Origin: an uncultured Bacillales bacterium
GTDB taxonomy: Bacteria > Bacillota_I > Bacilli_A > RF39 > UBA660
Direction of reading: 5' to 3'
DNA length: 64,000 bases
Assembly (NCBI GenBank): GCA_946534345.1
Contig: CAMNCL010000002.1
Span: 97,010-161,009 of the forward strand
Shown here: positions 21,898 through 37,687 of the stretch, piece after piece
How positions within the stretch are numbered: the first letter of the stretch is position 1
How the letters are laid out: each line of letters begins with the position of its first letter
Notes under the pieces: generated by a model
Database searches by the model: none
Told to the model about the DNA's origin: nothing
The model's input: the letters and a program-made list of their open reading frames with translations, nothing else
Program-made: the position numbers and the translations under genes

Positions 21898-22785
21898 TTA
21901 ATGATGGTTATGATGTCTTTCTACATGAACATGATTCATATCACAATCCATATTATCACACTTTTCTCCCTCTAATTCTAATTCAATAGTAGAATGACTA
22001 ATACCATGTTCTAATAATTCTTCACGTACTTCATTTTTTATTTTCTCACTGTATTTAGAAACAACTACATGAAGTGTTGCGAAATTATTATAACCATCTA
22101 TACTTCTAACATGAATATGATGAACATCTAATACTCCATTAACTTTCTTAATATGTTTCTTTAATTCATCTAAATCAATGTTTTTAGGAGTTATCTCTAA
22201 AAATACTTCTACTATTTCTTTAAGATTTTTCAAAGCATGAATAAATATAAATATCGCAACTCCAATAGATAAAACAGAATCAATAATAGAAATATTAGTA
22301 AAACGCATTAATATGGATCCAATCAGTACTACTACCCAACCAAGTACATCTTCTAACATATGTAAGTTAACTGCCTTTTGATTAAGCGAATCTCCATCTT
22401 TTGTAACATAACTAGCTAGAAAATTAACTATAACACCAAATAAAGCTATTATAATCATTCCATTATAATTAATATCTACTGGATTAAAGAATCTTTTTAT
22501 AGATTCAACTATAACAAAACTAGAACCAACTAATAGAATTACTGTAGTAATAACACTACCAATTACTGAATATCTAATATAACCATAAGTATGAGTTTTA
22601 TCTGGCTTTTTCTTACTCTTTTTTTCTAAAAAATATGAAATTCCAATACTTAAAGCATCTCCAACATCATGTACTGCATCAGAAAGAATGGCTATACTAC
22701 CAGTAAACATTCCACCAAAGAATTCAAATAAAGCAAAAAATAGATTTAAAACAAAAGCTATTAAAATATTTTTATCAGTTTTCAT
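21898..22785 (-). CDS. czcD: Cation diffusion facilitator (CzcD-like) Zn/Co/Cd exporter
   Basis: SDAVHDVGD, HMLEDVLGW, DVHHIHV, His-rich C-tail. Confidence 0.88.
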   Translation of the reverse strand: MKTDKNILIAFVLNLFFALFEFFGGMFTGSIAILSDAVHDVGDALSIGISYFLEKKSKKKPDKTHTYGYIRYSVIGSVITTVILLVGSSFVIVESIKRFFNPVDINYNGMIIIALFGVIVNFLASYVTKDGDSLNQKAVNLHMLEDVLGWVVVLIGSILMRFTNISIIDSVLSIGVAIFIFIHALKNLKEIVEVFLEITPKNIDLDELKKHIKKVNGVLDVHHIHVRSIDGYNNFATLHVVVSKYSEKIKNEVREELLEHGISHSTIELELEGEKCDNMDCDMNHVHVERHHNHH

Positions 22786-22967
22786 ATTACATCACCTTGT
22801 ATAGTAAGTATAACACAAAAAAGAGATTATTTCCTTATCTAATCTCTTTTCTTTTAAATGCTTGTATACCAATTACTATAAAAATCCAACTTTAGGTAAT
22901 TTAGGATTAACTGTATTATATTATTTAATACATTTATATTTAAAGAAAAAAGATACTTAATTGTATC

Positions 22968-23402
22968 TTATTTAACTTCACAAGGATATTCATAATCAAT
23001 AATATAATCATTAATATTATATGAATGATCACTAAACCATTTTTTGACATTAGCTTTTACTTTTTCAGGATTTTTACAATCAGATATAGCAACTATAATG
23101 GCAAGTTCTTTATCATCATTCATATATGGAATCATGGCAAATCCTTCTTCATTAGAATTTACTATATCTTCATAGATTGATTGAGTTGATAATAAACTCT
23201 CTTCTTCTTGACCATTAAATTTATCACAAACCTTATGCATTTCTTCTTCAGTTTCAAATGTATAAGTTGTTCCAGTCTCATAATCATAACAAGAATATTT
23301 TTCTTTTGCTTCTCTATTATTAAATAAATAGAATAAACCCATTACAATTATAAAGACTAATACAAATATCACTAATGGTATTATTTTATATTTATCATTC
23401 AT
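22968..23402 (-). CDS. Hypothetical single-TM protein with four Cys
   Basis: ATG shares a base with the upstream TAA (TAATG); N-terminal TM. Confidence 0.65.
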   Translation of the reverse strand: MNDKYKIIPLVIFVLVFIIVMGLFYLFNNREAKEKYSCYDYETGTTYTFETEEEMHKVCDKFNGQEEESLLSTQSIYEDIVNSNEEGFAMIPYMNDDKELAIIVAISDCKNPEKVKANVKKWFSDHSYNINDYIIDYEYPCEVK

Positions 23403-24397
23403 TATTTTACCCACCTTATAATTTGATATAATGGCATACTAGCATTTCTCTTAGCAGAATAAGTAAGCATTGTAGAACATTTATAATCTTTACATCCATT
23501 AGTAAATGTATGACCACCATCAAATACTACTGCACTACCAGTTTTTTGATTAACACTGCCAATCGCAAAAGTATGAAGTTTTACTCCTATTATATCTCCA
23601 GGTTGAATTATTCCCTTTTGAATTGCTGTTTTAACGTTCATTGAACCATCAAATTTATATTGTTTAGTATATTGTGTAATTTTACCTTTATATCCTTGAA
23701 ATCCTCCTCTGCCTTCTGAATTAACTACAGTAACTTTACCCATTACATCAGTCATACCCCAGTTTGCAGGAACAACACATGTAGTTGCGACTAGTTTTCC
23801 TTGCTCAGCTGCTTTAATAGCTAAGGCCCAAGTTTTCTTATGATCATGATAATTATAATCTACTGGTGGATGATATTTAGCAATTGCTTCACTTAATCTT
23901 CTTGAATTATTTACCATACTAGTTAAAAATCTATTACAATACTCTAAATTACCACAAGAAGTAACTGGTATATCAGTACCATCTGTATAACTTCCTATAT
24001 CACTACTAGACTTAGGAACTCCATATTCATAATCTGCAGGATCTGCATATATTGGAGTAGTAGACTGATCTCCATAGGGATTAATATAAGTAGCATTAAA
24101 ACTAGGTTTACTTACATTCTGAGTCCAACAAGAACTTATCTCTGTACCTTCCCCTAACATTAACATAGACCAATTAACAAGAGCAGGTATTAAAAATAAT
24201 ACAAATAGTGCTATAAAACTATTTCTAATTTTTTTAGGAATTTTCTGATCATCTGGATTTTTAGTCAACATTGAAAAATGTATTACTAAACTGATAATAG
24301 CTAGTAAAGGACCAACAATCCATACTAAATTTAATAGATTTTTTATCATATATAGAACACTACCTAAAGTAGCGCTATGACAATCTACCAGTATCAT
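23402..24397 (-). CDS. Two-TM pilin-like domain fused to an NlpC/P60-like Cys-His domain
   Basis: N-terminal Cys-TM-NPD-TM-Cys; C-terminal TTC...PGDII...HT; paralog of 33948-35186. Confidence 0.6.
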   Translation of the reverse strand: MILVDCHSATLGSVLYMIKNLLNLVWIVGPLLAIISLVIHFSMLTKNPDDQKIPKKIRNSFIALFVLFLIPALVNWSMLMLGEGTEISSCWTQNVSKPSFNATYINPYGDQSTTPIYADPADYEYGVPKSSSDIGSYTDGTDIPVTSCGNLEYCNRFLTSMVNNSRRLSEAIAKYHPPVDYNYHDHKKTWALAIKAAEQGKLVATTCVVPANWGMTDVMGKVTVVNSEGRGGFQGYKGKITQYTKQYKFDGSMNVKTAIQKGIIQPGDIIGVKLHTFAIGSVNQKTGSAVVFDGGHTFTNGCKDYKCSTMLTYSAKRNASMPLYQIIRWVK

Positions 24398-24414
24398 ATA
24401 ATTCCTCCTTTATC

Positions 24415-24822
24415 TTAGTTTTGGTTTTCAATATATTCAGAAGTTACAATAGCTTTTTTAGGTTTTTCAGGATCATAATTAACGACTACTTTTTTACCTA
24501 CAGTAAACATTATTTGTCCTTCAAAGTTTAATCCAAAACTTAAATTATTTCTAACAATTTTTGCGTCTCCAGAATTTTGATTCATAATTGCATCTTTTGC
24601 TGCTCTAATTGAATCAGTAAGATTATCTTGATAACCAGCTGCAGCTCTTGCTTTTAATTCCATCTCTTTCGCAAGCTCAAAAGGAACTCTAGTAGTATAC
24701 TTTTGTCCTTCTACTTCATATTCTACAAGAGGAAGATTCATATTATTAATCTTAACCGCAGAAGGTTTAGTAATTGTACCTATAGTAGTACAAGAATAAT
24801 TTGGTTTTTTAAATCCGAACAT
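24415..24822 (-). CDS. Hypothetical protein (DUF3592-like beta domain)
   Basis: PLVEYEVEGQKY and GKKVVVNYDPEKP patterns; start after AAGGAGG. Confidence 0.5.
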   Translation of the reverse strand: MFGFKKPNYSCTTIGTITKPSAVKINNMNLPLVEYEVEGQKYTTRVPFELAKEMELKARAAAGYQDNLTDSIRAAKDAIMNQNSGDAKIVRNNLSFGLNFEGQIMFTVGKKVVVNYDPEKPKKAIVTSEYIENQN

Positions 24823-24914
24823 AAAAGCCTCCTTATAATTATTATATATCATTAATTATAAACTAAATATATATCAAATGCAGAATATACTCTATTTGAC
24901 ATATTAAAATACTC

Positions 24915-25814
24915 TTATACATCAAGTAAAGCTAATATTACAACTCCAATAAGTACTAATAATATACCAATGTACTCTTTTTTAGATAATTTTTCTTTTA
25001 AGAATATTCTTGATAATAGCATTGATAAAACACAATAACTTCCAATTATAGGAGCAGCAATAGTAGAATTACCACTCATTGCAGTAACATAAAATATTTC
25101 TCCAGCAGTTTCAAATAAAGCTGCTGTTAATTTAGTTTTCTCTTTAATTATTGAAAAGTCTTCTTTCTTTATTTTTAAATATATTAATGTAATTAATCCA
25201 TATAAAGCAAATGTATATTCATAAGCAATTAAAGAAGGATTTTCTCCAATTATTTTTAGTTTATCTAGGTATATTCCATCTAAGAAAGTACCTAATCCAT
25301 CAAGTAAACAATATCCTAATGGAAATAAAATTGTTAAAGTTAATATCTTTTGCAATGTATTCTTCTTATTAAACTCTTTTCTATCTTTCTTATTTCTTTC
25401 TAAACCAATTATAGATAGTATTAAAATACCAATAAAAATAGATAATACCGCAATATAGAAAGGATAATCATAATGTTCTTTAAAGAATATAATAAATAGT
25501 AATGCTACAATTACACCACTAGTATTTTGTATAGGACTAGAAATAGATAATTCTAGATACTTTAACCCTCTATAACCAATTACCATACTAGCTATATAAC
25601 AAAAAGATACAGGTAAATACTTAATAATATCCATTATATTAATACTAGTATGTGTAGTTAATAATAAATAAGTACCATGGATACCCATTACTAAACCAAC
25701 CATTATACCAGTCTTTAAATGATTATAGTTACCTTTTCCTCTGTTCCCTAGTTTATAAAATAAATCTGCAACTCCCCAGAAGAAAAATGTTAATAATGTT
25801 GCGACCACTTGCAT
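24915..25814 (-). CDS. EamA/DMT superfamily transporter
   Basis: About 10 TM in two repeats; C-terminal FLKEKLSKKEYIGILLVLIGV. Confidence 0.85.
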   Translation of the reverse strand: MQVVATLLTFFFWGVADLFYKLGNRGKGNYNHLKTGIMVGLVMGIHGTYLLLTTHTSINIMDIIKYLPVSFCYIASMVIGYRGLKYLELSISSPIQNTSGVIVALLFIIFFKEHYDYPFYIAVLSIFIGILILSIIGLERNKKDRKEFNKKNTLQKILTLTILFPLGYCLLDGLGTFLDGIYLDKLKIIGENPSLIAYEYTFALYGLITLIYLKIKKEDFSIIKEKTKLTAALFETAGEIFYVTAMSGNSTIAAPIIGSYCVLSMLLSRIFLKEKLSKKEYIGILLVLIGVVILALLDV

Positions 25815-25868
25815 ATCATTCACCTAATCGAATTATAACATAAAAAAATAGTAAAATGATTACTTTTA

Positions 25869-26426
25869 CTATTTTTTATTATTAATAACTAAATCCATTT
25901 TATTATACTTTTCTAATAAATTAAAACATTCTTTTTTATAATCAATTGGTATAGTTATTACAAAACGACTCGTATCTCTGCTTATAGGTACAAAAGAAAT
26001 ACAATAATTAGAAATTAAAATAAATTTTATATTTTCCCATAAACACTCATAAGTAATATGATTATTCTTATTATCTAAAGTAACTTTTTCTTTATCAATT
26101 ATTAAAACTGAATTAGCATCTCGCTTAGTTTCAGTAGATATATATTTACGAACCGCAAGTATATCTTTTAGAAAAAATATTATAGCTAAAAGGAAAAATC
26201 CAGCCACAAAGCAATTAAATAGCATTACTTCTTTAAATATAATTAGCATTGAAACTACATATACAGTAAGAGCCACTGTTAAATATATTCTTTCTCTAAC
26301 ATATGGAATTATCTTCTTATAAGGATTGTTAATCAAACTATTATAATGACGAGCAATTGAGAATGCTTCATCTAAATATTTGTTCTTTTCTTCTACTTTT
26401 ATAATTTCTATACCATTGTTTTTCAT
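25869..26426 (-). CDS. Two-TM membrane protein with YcxB-like C-terminal domain
   Basis: Two TM helices then IIDKEKVTL...CLWENIKFILI pattern. Confidence 0.5.
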   Translation of the reverse strand: MKNNGIEIIKVEEKNKYLDEAFSIARHYNSLINNPYKKIIPYVRERIYLTVALTVYVVSMLIIFKEVMLFNCFVAGFFLLAIIFFLKDILAVRKYISTETKRDANSVLIIDKEKVTLDNKNNHITYECLWENIKFILISNYCISFVPISRDTSRFVITIPIDYKKECFNLLEKYNKMDLVINNKK

Positions 26427-26480
26427 TTAACTCACCCTTTATTAATAATGGTATATTTATTTTATCATATAAATTTAATT

Positions 26481-27341
26481 TTAAAGAAACAATTTATTAA
26501 CAATCTCTTTTACAAATTTAACTTCTTCTATCTTATGAATCCCAAAACATTTCTTTCCAACGTCTTTCAATGATGACCCACAAGAGTACAATATATATCT
26601 ATCTAAAATAATAAATCTATCATGAAAGGTATCATTATATATAAATTCTACATTTTTATATTGTTTATTATATTTTTTAATTAGTTTTTCATCTAAATTA
26701 CTTGATACAATAATTATTTTTTTGTTAATATCCTTTATTATATCTAATAATTCCTTTCCTGCATAGTTATCTATAATTATTATTTCTTCATATGCTCTAT
26801 TGAAAATATCCATAATTACTGAATAAGCATCATAGAAATCATCATCAAAAAACAAGTAATCTTTTACAATATCTTTAGGATTAAATCTATCAAACAATTC
26901 ATCTATTCTCTTTGTATTATTATCTACTTTCTCCTCTAACAAAAGATATTTTCTAGGAAGAAAATCTCTATTATAATTTAAATAGTGTCTCATTTTTACA
27001 AATGTATCCATTATTCTAATACTTACTTCAGTTGCTACATCTGACTTTAAAATCGTTGCAAGCATATAAACACCTTGTTCAACAAATGCTGTATGACCTT
27101 TCCTAGAGCCACCTTTTGAAGTCGAAATTTTCGACTTCAAAGAATTATATTCTTTATCCGTAATTCTAAACAAATATCTATCAGGGAATTTTTCTGGGTT
27201 GTTTTTTACTGCTTCATTAATTCTTTTTGTTTCAACATTATATAATTTAGCAAGATCAGTATCTAACATTACCTCCTTTCCATCAATTTCATAAATCATG
27301 TTTTCGATGTTTATAACATCTTTCTCTGCTATTTCATTCAT
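26481..27341 (-). CDS. ORF6N (KilA-N-related) DNA-binding protein with C-terminal PLD-like domain
   Basis: IYEIDGKEVMLDTDLAKLYNVETKRINEAVKNNPEKFP...AFVEQGVYMLATILKS; IIIDNY and HDRFIILD...GSSLKDVGKK; start after AAGGAGG. Confidence 0.88.
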   Translation of the reverse strand: MNEIAEKDVINIENMIYEIDGKEVMLDTDLAKLYNVETKRINEAVKNNPEKFPDRYLFRITDKEYNSLKSKISTSKGGSRKGHTAFVEQGVYMLATILKSDVATEVSIRIMDTFVKMRHYLNYNRDFLPRKYLLLEEKVDNNTKRIDELFDRFNPKDIVKDYLFFDDDFYDAYSVIMDIFNRAYEEIIIIDNYAGKELLDIIKDINKKIIIVSSNLDEKLIKKYNKQYKNVEFIYNDTFHDRFIILDRYILYSCGSSLKDVGKKCFGIHKIEEVKFVKEIVNKLFL

Positions 27342-27364
27342 AATTAAACCTCCTTCTTTAGAAT

Positions 27365-27495
27365 AAAAAAAGGATATCCCCTTCATCCTATTAAAAGGGA
27401 TATCCCGCAGCATGCAATAATTCTTCCTCGCCTTAAAGAATTAGAACCTTAGCGTCCAAATTGTCATATTAACTCACGGCAAGATAATTAATACA
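27365..27495 (-). ncRNA. Candidate ~130-nt structured RNA with its own promoter and terminator
   Basis: TTGATT-17-TATATT promoter (27501-27529), locally GC-rich body with TAATTCTT/AAGAATTA hairpin, terminator GGATATCCC...GGGATATCC plus T7. Confidence 0.5.
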
Positions 27496-27741
27496 CTTGC
27501 AATATATCATAACTATTATTATAAATCAATCGAACAGAACTGCTTTTTTCATTATTATCTTCATCACTTGAAAATGCAAGTCCAAAGCATATTCCAATAC
27601 TAACTCCAATAGGTAACCATAATCCCATATTATTTGTAGCTGCACCAATTGTAACTCCTATGCTTATTCCTATACATATTCCAATTGGTAACCAATTACT
27701 ATTATTATCTTTCTTTTTTTCTACTTTTTTTCTTTTTTCAT
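27488..27741 (-). pseudogene. Frameshifted glycine-zipper small membrane protein
   Basis: ATG AAA AAA GAA AAA AAG TAG; the -1 frame continues VEKKKDNNSNWLPIGICIGISIGVTIGAATNNMGLWLPIGVSIGICFG; span is 254 nt, one short of 85 codons. Confidence 0.7.
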
Positions 27742-27743
27742 AT

Positions 27744-27791
27744 TTATCTTCTCTCTAATACACTGACACTCTCCACATGGCTAGACCGCGG
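27744..27791 (-). repeat. rlmD 3'-end copy 3 (att-like scar)
   Basis: Translates PRSSHVESVSVLERR*; the next ATG follows after 2 nt. Confidence 0.88.
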
Positions 27792-27884
27792 GTTTTTGAC
27801 ATCTCACTTTTTGTATGTTCATGAGTCTTTGCATTCCTAAAACCAATAGTTTATCAACCTTGTCTATTGGTTTTTGACATGCCA

Positions 27885-28091
27885 TTATTTCTTTTTAATA
27901 ATCCATACCCATTTTTCTTTTAAAGATAGTTTTTTAAACTCATAACCATAATCTGGTAATTCTTTTTTATAAGTTAAGAATGCATGGTCAAAATCAAAGC
28001 CAGTTATTCTTTTTACTTCTTCAAATGATAATTTATACTCTTTTTTATTATTTTCTTTTACATATCTCCATAATGGTTCATACTTACTCAT
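27885..28091 (-). CDS. Small hypothetical protein (cassette gene 2)
   Basis: 68 aa MSKYEPLW...; RBS GAAAGGAG lies within rlmD tail copy 2. Confidence 0.8.
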   Translation of the reverse strand: MSKYEPLWRYVKENNKKEYKLSFEEVKRITGFDFDHAFLTYKKELPDYGYEFKKLSLKEKWVWIIKKK

Positions 28092-28094
28092 ATA

Positions 28095-28142
28095 TTATCT
28101 CCTTTCAAGTACCGTGATACTTTCACAATGCCCTGTCCTAGG
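28095..28142 (-). repeat. rlmD 3'-end copy 2 (att-like scar)
   Basis: Translates PRTGHCESITVLERR*; the next ATG follows after 3 nt. Confidence 0.92.
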
Positions 28143-28218
28143 GCAAAGAACATATCATTTAACCTAGTTCTAGGTCAACAGAATATGTTTCCCAGTACAA
28201 GTTTTAATAATTGTATTT

Positions 28219-28749
28219 TTATTTTCCAAAAGAGCATAGTGAGTTTCCTTTTTCGGAAACATAACAATTCCAATAACTATAACCAACTTCTACATAACCA
28301 TTTTGAAAAGCATTGGCATACATTCCATAAGCACTACAATGAATATTGGTGTCTCTAATTATACAATTATTACTATCAAATGTTCTTAATAAAACTTTTT
28401 TATTATGTTCATAATAGTCGGGATCAGCTCCTTTTAATGAAATCTTATTATTATCTATAATAAATTCAACATAGCTTTCTTTTACAATATCATTTTTTAT
28501 AATATGCTTATAGTACATTTTCTTATTGTTAAATTTTTTTAGAGCAGCATCTCTTGACTTATATTGTTTTATGCTATTTGGAATTTTTTTACCAATTGTA
28601 ATCATCTCATCACAATGATCTCTTTCATCACAATAGTTTATTGTATATATAGTGCCAGTAAAACCTTGATTTTTACTTTTTCTATCATGTACAAATATTA
28701 TTATTAAAATTAATACTATAATCACTATTATGATAATTATTTTCTTCAT
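28219..28749 (-). CDS. Single-TM, Cys-rich exported protein (cassette gene 1)
   Basis: MKKIIIIIVIIVL signal/TM, six Cys; RBS is the last codons of rlmD. Confidence 0.8.
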   Translation of the reverse strand: MKKIIIIIVIIVLILIIIFVHDRKSKNQGFTGTIYTINYCDERDHCDEMITIGKKIPNSIKQYKSRDAALKKFNNKKMYYKHIIKNDIVKESYVEFIIDNNKISLKGADPDYYEHNKKVLLRTFDSNNCIIRDTNIHCSAYGMYANAFQNGYVEVGYSYWNCYVSEKGNSLCSFGK

Positions 28750-28751
28750 TT

Positions 28752-29852
28752 TTACTTCCTTTCTAAAACTGCGACACTCTCGCAATGATATGTCCTAGGA
28801 AACATGTTAACTGGAGTTATATTTAGTATATTATAGTTATTACTTAAATCTTTTAAGTCTCTTGAGAGAGTTGCTGGATCACATGATACGTATATTATTC
28901 TCTCTGAATTTATTTCATTTAAATATTTCTTTGTTTTATTATCTAGTCCTGCTCTTGGAGGATCTACAATAACTAGATCAATATTTTTAAATGTATCTAT
29001 TTTATTTTCTACTTTATCACAGATAAAACTTATATTAGTAATACTATTTAATATCATATTTTTATTCGCATCATTAATATTAGATTCACTATAATCTATT
29101 CCTATTATTTCATTTACTAAATCACTAATGTATATTCCAATCGTTCCTGTACCGCAATATAAGTCTAAACACTTATTATATTTTTTATCTATATTATTTC
29201 TTATTAAATCATATAAATTCTTAGTAAGATATTTATTTACTTGAAAGAAAGAGTCTCTAGATACATAATACTTTTTATCTCCAATACTAGTAATAATAGA
29301 AGAATCATCATTCATTAGTATTTCTTTACCATCATTACTAGTTCTAATTACTATGTCTTTTTGAGAATATTTAATATTCTTTATATTATCATTAATTAGA
29401 TTATCTAATAATAAACAATTATCAATAGAAATAATATTTTTAGTACCTTTTTCATAATAACCTATTTTATTCTTTGAAGAATGAAATGTAACTTTATTAC
29501 GATAATTCTTCTCAGGTCCATATAGAGTATCATTTACTTTTACATTTAATTTACCAATATGATTAATTAACTCTTGTACTTTTTCTCTTTTAAATTCATT
29601 TTCTTTCTGATAACTTAAGTGTCTTAAATTACAACCACCACATATATCATAATATGAACAATCTACTTTTACTCTATCAGGACTAGACTCAATAACATTA
29701 ATTACTCTTGCTTCAAGATATTTACTTTTTTCTTTTGTTATTTCTATTTCAACTACTTCTCCTGGTAAAGCATTATCTACAAAACATATTTTATTATTTA
29801 TATATGTAATACCTCTTCCAAAATTATCTAATTTATCTATTTTTACTTGCAT
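28752..29852 (-). CDS. rlmD: 23S rRNA (uracil-5)-methyltransferase, RlmD/RumA (TrmA family)
   Basis: TRAM domain, C..Y..CGGC, SFFQVN, DLYCGTG, DPPRAG, YVSCDPATLSRD, NMFPRTYHCES. Confidence 0.93.
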   Translation of the reverse strand: MQVKIDKLDNFGRGITYINNKICFVDNALPGEVVEIEITKEKSKYLEARVINVIESSPDRVKVDCSYYDICGGCNLRHLSYQKENEFKREKVQELINHIGKLNVKVNDTLYGPEKNYRNKVTFHSSKNKIGYYEKGTKNIISIDNCLLLDNLINDNIKNIKYSQKDIVIRTSNDGKEILMNDDSSIITSIGDKKYYVSRDSFFQVNKYLTKNLYDLIRNNIDKKYNKCLDLYCGTGTIGIYISDLVNEIIGIDYSESNINDANKNMILNSITNISFICDKVENKIDTFKNIDLVIVDPPRAGLDNKTKKYLNEINSERIIYVSCDPATLSRDLKDLSNNYNILNITPVNMFPRTYHCESVAVLERK

Positions 29853-29856
29853 AATA

Positions 29857-30741
29857 TCACCCATTTGTATCTGTTTTTATAGTCTCAAACATTATGTTTT
29901 CTCCGTCTGAAGTTAATAATATTGTACCATCTAAATCAGTTCTATATATCTTGGTATTTAAATAATTAAGTTTCTTTAATGTAATATCATGTGGATGCCC
30001 ATACTCGTTATCTTTTCCTACTGATATAATACCATATAGTGGTTTAGTTTTCTCAAGGAACTGAGCAGATGATGCATCACTAGAACCATGATGTCCTAGT
30101 TTTAAGACATCACATTTTAGATCTTTATCTAGTATTTTTAATTCTACATTTTTAGTTGCATCCCCAGTAAATATAAATGAAGTGTTTTTATAATTTAACT
30201 TTAAAACAATAGAGTCATCATTAATCTCTTCTTCACTATTACTAATCCATAGTACATTAAACATAGAATCATTCATTGTGAATGTACTATCTATTTCTGG
30301 TACTTCTATAGTCATATTCTTGGATTTTACTAAATCAACTATTTCTGTATATGTCTTATAATCAGTTTGTACATCTGGCATATAAATGTGTTCTACATCA
30401 AAGTTTCTAATTATATCATCCATACCACCTATATGATCTTCATGAGGATGAGTACATATTATATACTTAAATCTAGTAATACCAAGTTCTTTAAAATAAT
30501 TTACTAATTTAGGTCCATCTTCATTATTACCAGTATCAATTAAACTAAATTGTTCTTTATCTTTCACAAGAATTGAATCTGCCTCTCCTACATCAATAAA
30601 ATATATCTTAAAACTAGTAGTATCAACCAACTTATTATCTTTACGATATTCTGTAGTTTCACTAAAGAAATCACTGTTATAAGCTAAATAAACAGCTATA
30701 CCAATTAATATTAAAAATAATATGTCTTTTACTTTCTGCAT
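29857..30741 (-). CDS. ComEC/Rec2-type metallo-beta-lactamase-fold protein
   Basis: FIDVGEADS, THPHEDHIGG, LKLGHHGS, SVGKDNEYGHPH, RTDLDG. Confidence 0.9.
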   Translation of the reverse strand: MQKVKDILFLILIGIAVYLAYNSDFFSETTEYRKDNKLVDTTSFKIYFIDVGEADSILVKDKEQFSLIDTGNNEDGPKLVNYFKELGITRFKYIICTHPHEDHIGGMDDIIRNFDVEHIYMPDVQTDYKTYTEIVDLVKSKNMTIEVPEIDSTFTMNDSMFNVLWISNSEEEINDDSIVLKLNYKNTSFIFTGDATKNVELKILDKDLKCDVLKLGHHGSSDASSAQFLEKTKPLYGIISVGKDNEYGHPHDITLKKLNYLNTKIYRTDLDGTILLTSDGENIMFETIKTDTNG

Positions 30742-33947: not shown

Positions 33948-35186
33948 TTACTTCAAATCTATTACTCTTATTATAGCAATATTTTTGTTTTTCTTTTTCA
34001 TACTGTGTACATGCTTATGATTACGTGGCCCTGTAAAACCACTACCTGTCTCATAAGCAGTATATGTCTTTTTATTATAATCAACTTCTCCCACAAATGA
34101 TACGTGATACCAATTATTCCATGTATTAACATTATGTGGATCAATTTCACTTTCAAACCATTCAATAATATCTCCTGGTTTAATTTCTTCATAATTAGTT
34201 ATTATCTTATTAGTCTTTGCAGAACCTAATTTTCTAAAACTTGCGGAATGATTTACTGCAGTTCTTCCTGTTCCAAAAATTCCTGCTTTATAGTAAACCA
34301 TATCAGTAGTCCAATTACAACAAGTTGTCATATTTATTTCATTTTTCCCTGATATTAAATTATCAAAATGTTTTGCATCAGATAAGCCATCTTCAGTATG
34401 CATCATTTGATCAGGATAGAATGCATCAGATGTTCCTGCTCTAGGTAGTGTGCCCTTTTCTCTAAATGTTTTCATAGGTTGGCAACCTCCACCCCATTTA
34501 CAATATTTACCATTATCACCATTATAATAATCAAATCCATACATTGTCATCATACCTAATACATATTCAGCTACTTGTTGGAATTCATAGACAGTAGTTA
34601 CCTTTGGTTGTTTACCATAGTATTTAGCAAAATAACCACCTAAGCTTTTCATATATTTATCAAAACCACCATATGATGCAATAACACTATCAAAATTATA
34701 ATAGTTTAATTCATTCATATGTCTTTCAACAATATGTATTGTATCACATGAAAATTGACCTTTAATATGCTTACTCTTACAACTAAAATCTAATTGTTTA
34801 AAAGTACCTTCTTCATAATCATCTGGCTTAACAGTAACAGGAGTATTTTCTTGTTCATTAATTATAATGTATTTAGCATATAATTCAGGTTTAGTAGCAT
34901 TCTTATAACACTTAGTAAATTCAGTATTATTTCCAACCATACCCATAACTAAAGTTATAAAAAATGGTATTAGAAATATTATTATCAATGCTTTAACTGA
35001 ATTCTCTACTTTCTTTAATAACTTTTTATTATCTGGATTGCTCATTAATTGAATAAACAAGAAAGTTATTCCTATAATAGCTAATATAGGTGCTACAATC
35101 ATAATGATATTCAATACATTCTTAGTGATGTATAGAATTGTATTTAATTCAGCTTTTGAACATAAGTTTTGATTAACCAATATCAT
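33948..35186 (-). CDS. Two-TM pilin-like domain fused to an NlpC/P60/CHAP-like domain
   Basis: MILV..C-TM-NPD-TM-C N-terminus; TTCC...PGDII...WYHVSFV...YETGS; start moved to MILV after GGAG. Confidence 0.6.
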   Translation of the reverse strand: MILVNQNLCSKAELNTILYITKNVLNIIMIVAPILAIIGITFLFIQLMSNPDNKKLLKKVENSVKALIIIFLIPFFITLVMGMVGNNTEFTKCYKNATKPELYAKYIIINEQENTPVTVKPDDYEEGTFKQLDFSCKSKHIKGQFSCDTIHIVERHMNELNYYNFDSVIASYGGFDKYMKSLGGYFAKYYGKQPKVTTVYEFQQVAEYVLGMMTMYGFDYYNGDNGKYCKWGGGCQPMKTFREKGTLPRAGTSDAFYPDQMMHTEDGLSDAKHFDNLISGKNEINMTTCCNWTTDMVYYKAGIFGTGRTAVNHSASFRKLGSAKTNKIITNYEEIKPGDIIEWFESEIDPHNVNTWNNWYHVSFVGEVDYNKKTYTAYETGSGFTGPRNHKHVHSMKKKNKNIAIIRVIDLK

Positions 35187-35264
35187 AACAATCCCACTCC
35201 ATCCTATAGAATATTCTAGCATATTTTTATCAAAAAGCACATAAAAAAAACATACAAAGTATGT

Positions 35265-37520: not shown

Positions 37521-37604
37521 TGGTGCGAGTAACAGGAGTTGAACCTGCACGTCTGGGACACTAGATCCTAAGTCTAGCGCGTCTGCCAATTCCGCCATAC
37601 TCGC
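37521..37604 (-). tRNA. tRNA-Leu (anticodon TAG), CCA encoded
   Basis: GCGAGTATGGCGGAATTGGCAGACGCGCTAGACTTAGGATCTAG...GGTTCAACTCCTGTTACTCGCACCA, long variable arm. Confidence 0.97.
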
Positions 37605-37610
37605 ATGAAA

Positions 37611-37687
37611 TGGTGGACCCTATAGGACTCGAACCTATGACCGCCCGGTTATGAGCCGGATGCTCTAACCAACTGAGCTAAGGGTCC
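37611..37687 (-). tRNA. tRNA with CAT anticodon, most likely tRNA-Ile2 (lysidine)
   Basis: GGACCCTTAGCTCAGTTGGTTAGAGCATCCGGCTCATAACCGGG...GGGTCCACCA; G1-C72 and GGACC acceptor as in Bacillus tRNA-Ile2; not an initiator. Confidence 0.9.

Follow-up and report, generated by a model that had tools for sequence, protein, structure and literature searches.

A candidate array of small integrase-less gene cassettes at the 3' end of rlmD in an uncultured Bacillales bacterium

The rlmD locus and its array

The window analyzed here is a 64-kb stretch of contig CAMNCL010000002.1 (assembly GCA_946534345.1) from an uncultured Bacillales bacterium with a genome of 27% G+C. The rlmD region and nearly all genes are located on its minus strand. 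rlmD encodes a full-length RlmD/RumA with TRAM and U5-methyltransferase domains. Copies of the end of rlmD alternate with small genes directly behind it. The arrangement is interpreted as a three-unit array of small cassettes without integrases, inserted by site-specific recombination in the 3' end of rlmD, with a probability of roughly 0.7. The final 11 codons and the stop codon of the window rlmD are contributed by the first cassette. Each unit begins with a tail, the right half of an attachment (att) site, which ends in a ribosome-binding site (RBS), and an intact unit closes with a right end (RE). The following features, with open reading frames (ORFs) and transmembrane (TM) segments where present, constitute the array.

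28752..29864, minus strand: rlmD, 23S rRNA U1939 methyltransferase, 370 aa; TIGR00479 (RlmD) E 3e-82, PF05958, PF01938
28786..28787, minus strand: junction 1, CA of the His codon in MFPRTY-H, inferred crossover dinucleotide from the divergence of loci L164 and L167
28752..28785, minus strand: tail 1, right half of the att site; His remainder and CESVAVLERK-stop; terminal RBS AAGGAAG for cassette gene 1
28129..28785, minus strand: cassette 1, 657-nt unit; tail 1, ORF 28219..28749 and RE-A
28129..28198, minus strand: RE-A, right end of cassette 1, putative P-type left half-site; 40-nt hairpin; ATGTTC at -25 from CA
28129-28130 and 27778-27779, minus strand: further junction CAs, equivalent CA at tails 2 and 3
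28095..28128, minus strand: tail 2, left end of cassette 2; His remainder and CESITVLERR-stop; RBS AAGGAG
27778..28128, minus strand: cassette 2, 351-nt unit; tail 2, ORF 27885..28091 (68 aa, no family) and RE-B
27778..27880, minus strand: RE-B, right end of cassette 2; three ATGyCAAAnACC repeats; core 27778-27802
27744..27777, minus strand: tail 3, left end of cassette 3; His remainder and VESVSVLERR-stop
27488..27741, minus strand: cassette 3 gene, decayed; small double-TM protein; frameshift in the A-run 27721-27741

Three 48-nt segments of the minus strand had been recognized as copies of the rlmD end in a first-pass annotation of the window: PRTYHCESVAVLERK plus stop (28752-28799), PRTGHCESITVLERR plus stop (28095-28142) and PRSSHVESVSVLERR plus stop (27744-27791). 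Their coordinates, the copy-to-copy spacing of 657 and 351 nt, the distance of 2-3 nt between stop codon and next ATG (2, 3 and 2 nt behind the three tails) and the purine-rich RBS were confirmed. The RBS are AAGGAAG, AAGGAG and GAGAGAAG, 7-8 nt ahead of the ATG. A degenerate pattern from the His codon to the stop matches exactly three sites in the 64 kb and none in 100 dinucleotide-preserving shuffles; as the pattern was built from the three copies, this result gauges its specificity and is no independent test.

In total, 199 rlmD loci (2.35 Mb) were collected, labeled L001 to L199, with their RlmD proteins labeled P followed by four digits. Scans of GTDB genomes and JGI metagenomes yielded a best RlmD identity of only 55%; close relatives were obtained solely by exact-protein look-ups. 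The metagenome contig L003, which originates from another assembly, is 99.96% identical to the window over 12.4 kb and shows an array of identical layout. An assembly artefact is excluded by this independent contig.

Cassettes 1 and 2 look intact. The protein of cassette 1 (176 aa) is Cys-rich, has a TM anchor and belongs to no family. Cassette 3 is a decayed remnant. A fusion at about 27549 joins its 3' end to a conserved block upstream of an ORF6N gene, and an own right end is missing. The same block precedes the ORF6N gene in L190 and L192. With this fusion, the original native rlmD tail has been lost. L190 derives from a related strain with 93.5% identity to the window; an IS30-family transposase gene is situated inside its cassette-3 remnant (L190:1-1143). 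Position 27422 of the window, where contig L003 ends, was considered as a fourth, degenerate RE-A junction ending in GGCGAGGAAGA. This candidate was withdrawn because the 150 nt upstream belong to the block conserved in L190 and L192. The contig end is probably an assembly break in this multi-copy block.

Position of the junction

The contigs L164 and L167 represent one species. They show 0 mismatches over 9,067 nt and diverge directly after ACATATCA, which ends in the CA of the conserved His codon. Beyond this CA, both sequences are unrelated. RlmD proteins of the clade, 65-95% identical to that of the window, are mosaic exactly after MFPRTYH. P0010 and P0013, carried by L164 and L167, are identical through this motif and unrelated beyond. 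Only CA, plus 1-2 nt, is common to the partners at the junctions, and flanking identity is absent. The crossover evidently coincides with the CA of the His codon or adjoins it. It had initially been placed at the CC of the Pro codon (between MF and P), but the identity of L164 and L167 runs 12 nt further downstream.

The limits of cassette 2 agree with a junction at CA. In an alignment of three genomes, the CA at the left end is common and the upstream flanks are unrelated. The copies in the window and in L164 are near-identical from CA onward, with two mismatches in the first 10 nt, and the right end in L164 closes at CA. Several contigs from close strains break off at the tail or shortly behind it, which is what strain differences at this point would produce.

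Anatomy of the units

A unit comprises a 34-nt tail, which completes RlmD and provides stop codon and RBS, the cargo, usually one co-oriented ORF, and a conserved right end stopping at CA. One of a few conserved right ends is present upstream of every secondary tail. In the window, the end of RE-B reads GGTCTAGCCA and the start of tail 2 reads TTGTGAAAGT. The residues PRTG in copy 2 and PRSS in copy 3 correspond to the last 12 nt of RE-A and RE-B, the right ends of the preceding cassettes. They are not remains of an old rlmD, because these right ends are conserved elsewhere irrespective of the tail. The gene-end portion of each copy starts with the His codon. The view of the copies as former RlmD C-termini thus applies to the 11 codons and the stop, and does not extend to the codons upstream.

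RE-A is 95% identical in L089, L099 and L168, in loci with an RlmD identity of about 50%. It was also found in L138, L164, L172, L198 and L199. Its single-stranded DNA fold has a z-score of -3.4, with the hairpin about 22 nt from the junction. A reading of RE-A as two direct repeats was rejected in favor of this inverted repeat. RE-B occurs in L019, L116, L004, L092 and L164 (short form) as well as in 17 genome loci (L173-L189). An optional 76-nt insert of RE-B bears a hairpin with an 11-bp stem (27839-27874). The short form is unstructured (z = +1.0), and attC-like folding as a general trait was rejected for this reason. Additional right-end families, named C, D, E and F, are present in other loci.

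Aligned at CA, all right-end families share A-R-A-N-N-A at -32 to -27, an ATGTTC-like hexamer, C at -7 and CA at -2/-1. The motif [ACT]T[GA][TG][TC][CAT] is located at exactly -25 in 27 of 36 distinct right ends. The C at -7, present in 83-90% of the right ends, defines a conserved 7-nt frame, C-N4-CA. In rlmD itself, ATGTT(T/C), the Met-Phe codons, begins at -20, i.e. 5 bp nearer to CA than in the right ends. Cassette tails and native tails are of equal length and have a distal AA..GG.GATAA pattern in common.

Tails and their extensions matched no Rfam family. The patterns of RE-A, RE-B and RE-C are absent from IMG/VR viral contigs, and a blastn search with the 1.45-kb array yielded no match in 50,697 phage or 72,556 plasmid records. 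A phage or plasmid origin of the right ends was rejected on these results.

Two further observations concern the unit ends. Behind tails of a second type (HVECVCVLNRR-stop) lies a conserved extension, non-coding and about 35 nt long (TTATAAATAAAGGAAAAATCAACTATTCAGTAG), in L021:11081-11200, L067:5496-5600, L114, L097, L105 and L145. It resembles RE-D (ATAAAGGTCAACTATTCATAAT) and has no Rfam match. In L089:4972, L099:1810 and L168 (reverse complement, about 2270), RE-A is joined at CA to ATGATACCTATTAACAAGGTAGATAAA, a sequence other than an rlmD tail. The genes behind it encode a ParA-like ATPase and membrane proteins; ATGATACCTATTAACAAGGTAGATAAA may be where another, larger element within the array has its left end.

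Recurrence and reshuffling

In the collected loci, cassettes recur as units and are reshuffled between genomes. Cassette 2 was found as the 351-nt unit in seven genomes (window, L164, L169, L174, L180, L181 and L183), in array position 1, 2 or 3. Its upstream neighbors are of five kinds: rlmD in L169 and L183, RE-A in the window and L174, RE-B in L180, RE-C in L181 and another end in L164. The nucleotide identity to the copy in L164 is 98.9% over 262 nt, compared with 77.7% for rlmD. Cassette 1 occurs as an equal 657-nt unit directly behind rlmD in L198 and L199; the encoded proteins are 80-85% identical, while the RlmD identity is 52-57%. L198 represents a clean single insertion, in which rlmD is followed by tail, gene and RE-A, then by the native tail and a terminator. 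A homologous-recombination tract into the rlmD of L198 was rejected: the 80% identity of the 3' 500 nt reflects conservation of the methyltransferase domain, and the profile of L004 is alike. An intact 72-aa homologue of the cassette 3 protein is encoded in L168, between an RE-C-tail junction and RE-A. The outermost tail and terminator of L019 equal the native rlmD end of L044, which places the oldest gene end at the far end of the array.

The central idea of the first-pass annotation, minimal cassettes without integrase at the 3' end of rlmD whose att tail supplies stop codon and RBS, has withstood these comparisons. The block is not invariant. Relatives with 94-95% identical RlmD carry other first cassettes: L169 (94%) has cassette 2 behind rlmD, and L172 (95%) has yet another first cassette, which ends in RE-A. 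Large integrase-bearing elements do not occupy these positions in any of the 199 loci, except for a distant integrative and mobilizable element (IME) in L073.

Several loci show additional arrangements. In L019:15317-19768 and L180:838-5288, a native rlmD tail and a three-gene [FeFe]-hydrogenase-like operon (nuoE, nuoF, hydA) are followed by a second cassette run, which begins at a pseudo-attB, AATGCTTATAACTCATCA/TTGTGAAAG. Either the operon itself is a 4.4-kb cassette, or a secondary attachment site is present. The metagenome-assembled genome (MAG) RUG13868 harbors arrays on two contigs, L173 (CADBDE010000010) and L019/L182 (CADBDE010000018), as does the MAG CAMYYH01 (L176 and L186). There may be more than one array locus per genome, or the MAGs may be mixed. 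P0030 in L197 is a hybrid RlmD. Its first ~305 residues belong to the window clade and its last ~80 to a distant type (DMFPGTTHVETVCCLYHQKKDFISVPY), joined at DPPRAG. The long tail of P0030 also follows RE-B in L184. The contig L197 ends at the stop codon of P0030, and a chimeric assembly is possible. P0030 was dropped as a lead to an integrase-bearing element, since the contig ends at the gene end.

Generality, cargo and hosts

In 27 of the collected loci, two to four tails were detected. Between these tails lie 46 units, which range from 167 to 8,640 nt and have a median size of about 950 nt. A single ORF, beginning 36-48 nt after the His codon, is present in about 30 of the units. All ORFs in the 46 units are oriented in the direction of rlmD. 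L199 contains seven tails within 4.6 kb. The hosts are represented by uncultured gut and rumen MAGs labeled Bacilli, Tenericutes, Erysipelotrichaceae or Mycoplasma sp. CAG.

The cargo includes NUDIX, HD, histidine phosphatase, HAD, GNAT, nucleoside hydrolase, nucleoside deoxyribosyltransferase-like, LD-carboxypeptidase and methyltransferase enzymes. Bro-N and ORF6N DNA-binding proteins and small membrane or lipoproteins are encoded as well. Mobility genes were not found among the cargo of the collected arrays, and no unit contains a fragment of an integrase or relaxase.

About 25 loci, among them L021, L067, L086, L101, L120, L124, L177, L180, L183, L185 (two copies), L189, L192 and L199, encode a protein with ORF6N and phospholipase D (PLD)-fold domains, either within the array or at its distal edge. 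The C-terminal domain of this protein has a PLD fold with the motif HDRF..D..G.S.K and Foldseek matches to Zucchini, NucT and PLD. The overall architecture is TrmBL2-like. More than 7,800 homologues exist, with identities of 73-81% for the top 120. Candidate roles are those of a passenger, a selfish gene or an accessory factor. As the recombinase the protein was not adopted; the PLD fold is present, but precedent and evidence for this role are lacking.

Distal neighborhood and expression

The array is followed by the features listed below.

27371..27406, minus strand: intrinsic terminator, the sole terminator-like site on the coding strand between 30000 and 22700
26481..27341, minus strand: gene of an ORF6N (antirepressor-like DNA-binding) and PLD-fold protein; PF10543 E 1e-28; conserved distal neighbor
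22786..28751, minus strand: variable island from rlmD to the cation-efflux gene; content differs between L164 and L190 although both keep rlmD and the cation-efflux gene
21898..22785, minus strand: conserved cation-efflux gene (cation diffusion facilitator, CDF), distal border of the island

From rlmD to position 22700, the only terminator-like site on the coding strand (27406..27371) is located just after cassette 3. This site and the fixed geometry of RBS and ATG support a co-transcription with rlmD. The cassettes are presumably expressed by read-through from the rlmD promoter, and the terminator 27406..27371 probably ends the common transcript. Units with the second type of tail (HVECVC...) have leaders of 200-300 nt and may carry own promoters.

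Upstream, a gene of a membrane-anchored metallo-beta-lactamase (MBL)-fold protein (Lactamase_B; 29857-30741, minus strand) overlaps the start of rlmD by 8 nt. The pairing of both genes is kept in many relatives (L004-L011, L164, L169, L172, L192). Paralogous membrane proteins are encoded on both sides of rlmD (23402-24397 and 33948-35240, minus strand), the first one within the variable island. Both have an N-terminal segment resembling pilins of type IV secretion systems (PF18895) and a weak match to the Mbov_0396 ICE (integrative and conjugative element) TM family. Genes for tRNA-Leu(TAG) and tRNA-Met(CAT) are located at 37521-37687 (minus strand); adjoining repeats or elements were not noted.

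Search for a recombinase

Neither serine nor tyrosine recombinases were detected in the 64-kb window by a motif scan and by phmmer (E <= 10) with all six-frame ORFs of at least 60 aa, which bears out the initial statement that the window lacks an integrase. No recombinase gene was found in the 46 units of the 27 arrays, and phmmer searches of the 199 loci located none inside any array. Homologues of large serine recombinases are restricted to L073, L159 and L163 within the 2.35 Mb, outside arrays. A classical IME follows rlmD in L073, a distant Clostridium-like locus; it encodes a relaxase, a ParB-like protein and, at its far end, a large serine recombinase. It is the sole large integrase-bearing element at rlmD in the collection. 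This IME agrees with the published serine integrases of ICEs and IMEs, for which rumA/rlmD is a known target (PMC4701971, PMC5704250).

In one sublineage, 12 loci have a Xer-like gene at a distance of about 1.2 kb upstream of rlmD (L059, L060, L083, L120, L125, L130, L134, L137, L138, L146, L049, L063). The gene encodes about 305 aa and is situated on the same strand, one gene upstream of rlmD. Its presence shows no evident correlation with arrays; L138 has both.

The most likely enzyme type is a large serine recombinase acting in trans. In attB half-sites of large serine integrases, the outer motif, bound by the zinc-ribbon domain, lies about 5 bp nearer to the center than in attP half-sites (PMC11722253). 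The same offset was observed here between rlmD, with -20, and the 27 of 36 right ends with -25; only left half-sites are comparable. The junction is a non-palindromic dinucleotide without flanking identity, in keeping with large serine recombinases. In rough terms, a serine recombinase falls just short of even odds, an enzyme of some other or unknown kind is unlikely, and a Xer-like or other tyrosine recombinase is more unlikely still.

Proposed mechanism

In the proposed mechanism, a circular cassette would carry one att site, with the right end as left half and the 34-nt tail as right half. On insertion, the tail would replace the last 11 codons of RlmD and provide the stop codon. The end of the tail would serve as Shine-Dalgarno sequence for a single cargo gene starting 2-3 nt later. 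Each insertion would push the earlier tail downstream, and through repeated insertion, genes of one orientation, mostly without promoters, would accumulate as an array between rlmD and the terminator. Promoterless genes in front of the first terminator suggest a transcription of the array from the rlmD promoter. The recombinase would act in trans and be encoded outside of the window and the arrays, with rlmD providing B-type and the right ends P-type half-sites.

A further step is the interpretation as a true integron analogue, a dedicated gene-capture platform at the 3' end of rlmD in low-GC gut and rumen Bacilli. Promoterless circles of 0.35-3 kb with standardized att sites would be inserted singly and excised by a trans-acting, probably serine, recombinase. 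With each incoming tail, RlmD would be rebuilt and the cargo would obtain its translation start, and the array would be an operon extension of rlmD. This interpretation is tentative and stands below even odds.

Several points weigh against the array as a product of site-specific cassette insertion by a trans-acting serine recombinase. The circular intermediate, the enzyme class and the read-through are parts that we infer. Cassette 3 is decayed and, with its missing right end, remnant-like. Promoter-like hexamers occur at the frequency of shuffled sequence in this AT-rich DNA and neither support nor exclude internal promoters. The copy of cassette 2 in L169 matches that of the window only from about 17 nt inside the tail, and in two comparisons (this one, and L100 with L089 for a cassette encoding 188 aa) extra breakpoints are located 17-19 nt inside the tail. 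They may indicate a second exchange point or conversion between tails. Across 86 native, 17 first and 60 internal junctions, no dyad symmetry was centered on CA; symmetry was highest elsewhere. A recombinase-bearing member was found in 0 of about 30 arrays, so a host-encoded enzyme fits at least equally well as a serine integrase acting in trans. Islands of the staphylococcal cassette chromosome (SCC) usually have a ccr-bearing element nearby. Canonical large serine integrases recombine only attP with attB. With this selectivity, an array would stop after one insertion unless the selectivity were relaxed or the first junction attB-like. It is conceivable that the first junction stays attB-like, given the equal tail length and the common distal pattern.

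Alternative explanations

The units could be decayed remnants, cis-mobilizable elements (CIMEs) as Guedon and colleagues use the term, derived from successive ICEs, IMEs or prophages that inserted at rlmD, lost integrase and transfer genes and retained only passive mobility in cis. At 3'-end integration sites, accretion and decay are an established model (PMC5704250). ICEs, IMEs and prophages have a hotspot at rlmD, a complete IME that includes a serine recombinase follows rlmD in L073, and cassette 3 of the window is visibly decayed. However, random decay predicts varied sizes and gene fragments, while about 30 of the 46 units consist of one intact ORF at a distance of 36-48 nt from the junction and have intact ends. 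The 351-nt and 657-nt units recur with identical limits across genomes and positions. Fragments of integrases or relaxases are missing from all units, and no functional partner adjoins the approximately 30 arrays. A parent element or an adjacent functional element was not found in the 199 loci, although the MAG contigs are fragmentary and this absence is no proof. Decay is an unlikely origin of the arrays.

The main alternative to a serine recombinase is a host Xer-type tyrosine recombinase, which would run the same cassette system. One strand would be exchanged at the CA border and resolved by replication. IMEX elements, pdif modules and integron attC sites operate in this way, and an element-borne integrase would not be needed. 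In support of this explanation, no recombinase gene is located in or beside the arrays, and Xer-like genes are present upstream of rlmD in 12 loci, including the array-bearing L138. The 7-nt frame C-N4-CA resembles the central region between two cleavage points. The rlmD site, GTTTCCTAGGA-CATATC, was compared by eye with what we take to be the dif sequence of Bacillus subtilis; left arm and spacer agree in 12 of 17 positions and the right arm in 4 of 11, and the dif sites of the hosts may differ. The right arm bears no resemblance to dif. That of the left arm is specific to FPRT codons, and in array-bearing FPNT lineages it is weak. The upstream Xer-like genes are uncorrelated with arrays. The exact outward shift of the motif by 5 bp in all right-end families is explained by serine integrases and not by Xer. 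A Xer-driven system is judged improbable, about on a par with decay.

A hypervariable island without dedicated recombinase has also been considered. Its content would be swapped by homologous or homology-facilitated recombination via the rlmD end, tails and right ends after DNA uptake. The flanks (rlmD on one side; the ORF6N, EamA and CDF genes on the other) are conserved and the content is variable, and the mosaic breakpoints in tails, 17-19 nt from CA, agree with such swaps. The divergence, however, begins at one dinucleotide with an unrelated far side. For RecA, the homology in tails and right ends is insufficient, with at most ~36 nt and an identity of 70-85%. Homologous exchange neither creates duplications of tails nor explains the fixed motif spacing of the right-end families. 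This explanation is very improbable.

The AT-rich, low-complexity context is all that speaks for a chance resemblance or for local tandem duplication of the 3' end of rlmD; this explanation is already refuted by the 0 matches in shuffled sequence and by the flanks of each copy, which are conserved in unrelated genomes.

Comparison with known systems

Structurally, SCC and pseudo-SCC islands at rlmH and the accretion of CIMEs are closest to the rlmD arrays. SCC recombinases are large serine recombinases. SCC and pseudo-SCC elements of staphylococci target and restore the 3' end of a 23S rRNA methyltransferase gene, rlmH (orfX), and the gene end, the integration site sequence (ISS), is repeated at every junction. 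Up to 6-8 ISS copies per island have been reported, including elements without ccr (PMC3900703; 10.1101/2023.03.17.533233; 10.64898/2026.03.31.715619). The target here is rlmD (TIGR00479) instead of rlmH. SCC elements are multigene elements of 3-60 kb, whereas the rlmD units comprise 0.35-3 kb and are mostly single genes without own promoter. In the rlmD units, the distance between att tail and gene start is fixed, and the tail is the source of the RBS. SCC-type arrays are defined by ccr-type large serine recombinase genes on at least one element of the island; no homologue was found in the approximately 30 arrays or in the window. The hosts are staphylococci in one case and uncultured low-GC gut and rumen Bacilli in the other.

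CIMEs of the ICESt1/ICESt3 family and other tandems of ICEs and IMEs are also flanked by att sites, lack genes for integration and transfer and occur in stacks at a conserved gene's 3' end (PMC5704250). They are described as decay products mobilized in cis. The rlmD units have standardized ends and gene positions, and identical small units are reordered. Their recurrence in different orders points to a mobility of the unit itself.

Integrons, especially sedentary chromosomal ones, resemble the rlmD arrays in architecture: co-oriented single-ORF cassettes, here presumably promoterless for the most part, each have a recombination site of their own. Further similarities are insertion beside a fixed site with a promoter upstream, reshuffling between genomes and a cargo including GNAT, NUDIX and proteins of unknown function. 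In integrons, intI adjoins attI, whereas no such gene was found beside the arrays, except for the Xer-like upstream genes in one sublineage. The palindrome R''-L''/L'-R' of attC and its GTTRRRY core are absent, and the junction is CA followed by TTG, TGT or CGT. The fixed site is located within a gene whose end has to be rebuilt by each cassette, the enzyme is probably a serine recombinase and the phylum is Bacillota. The array is functionally integron-like, but lacks intI and attC, the defining features of integrons.

ICEs and IMEs with serine integrases specific for rumA/rlmD, as in streptococci and CTn5 of Clostridioides difficile, use the same target and exchange its 3' part. Their flanking repeats are very short, 2-21 bp (PMC4701971), and short repeats were likewise observed here. 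These elements comprise tens of kb, carry the integrase with attR inside the integrase gene and change the rumA frame. In the rlmD arrays, frame and C-terminus are preserved and an integrase is absent. The literature describes rlmD/rumA as a hotspot for large elements; a description of such cassette arrays was not found in the literature searches.

IMEX elements and pdif modules are small, lack an integrase and rely on a recombinase encoded elsewhere. The lack of an own integrase is shared with the rlmD cassettes. Apart from the partial match of the left arm, their recognizable 28-bp dif mimics were not seen here, nor were inversely oriented sites as boundaries, which delimit pdif modules.

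Significance

To our knowledge, classical integrons have not been found in Gram-positive phyla. If the arrays are a true integron analogue, Bacillota would have their first integron-like system, which would also be the first built on a serine recombinase. A parallel cassette system with different chemistry, whose site lies within a housekeeping gene, would demonstrate more than one evolutionary origin of array-type gene capture. The claim is directly testable with existing metagenome reads and a two-plasmid recombination assay.

The att sites are compact and natural, with at least 5-6 right-end families, two tail types and one joining dinucleotide. This family of sites could become a set of tools for iterative genome integration if the recombinase is identified. 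For the hosts, the cargo points to an exchangeable pool of housekeeping and detoxifying enzymes, not of resistance or transfer genes. The cassette system would explain some of the differences in gene content between strains of abundant, uncultured Bacilli from gut and rumen.

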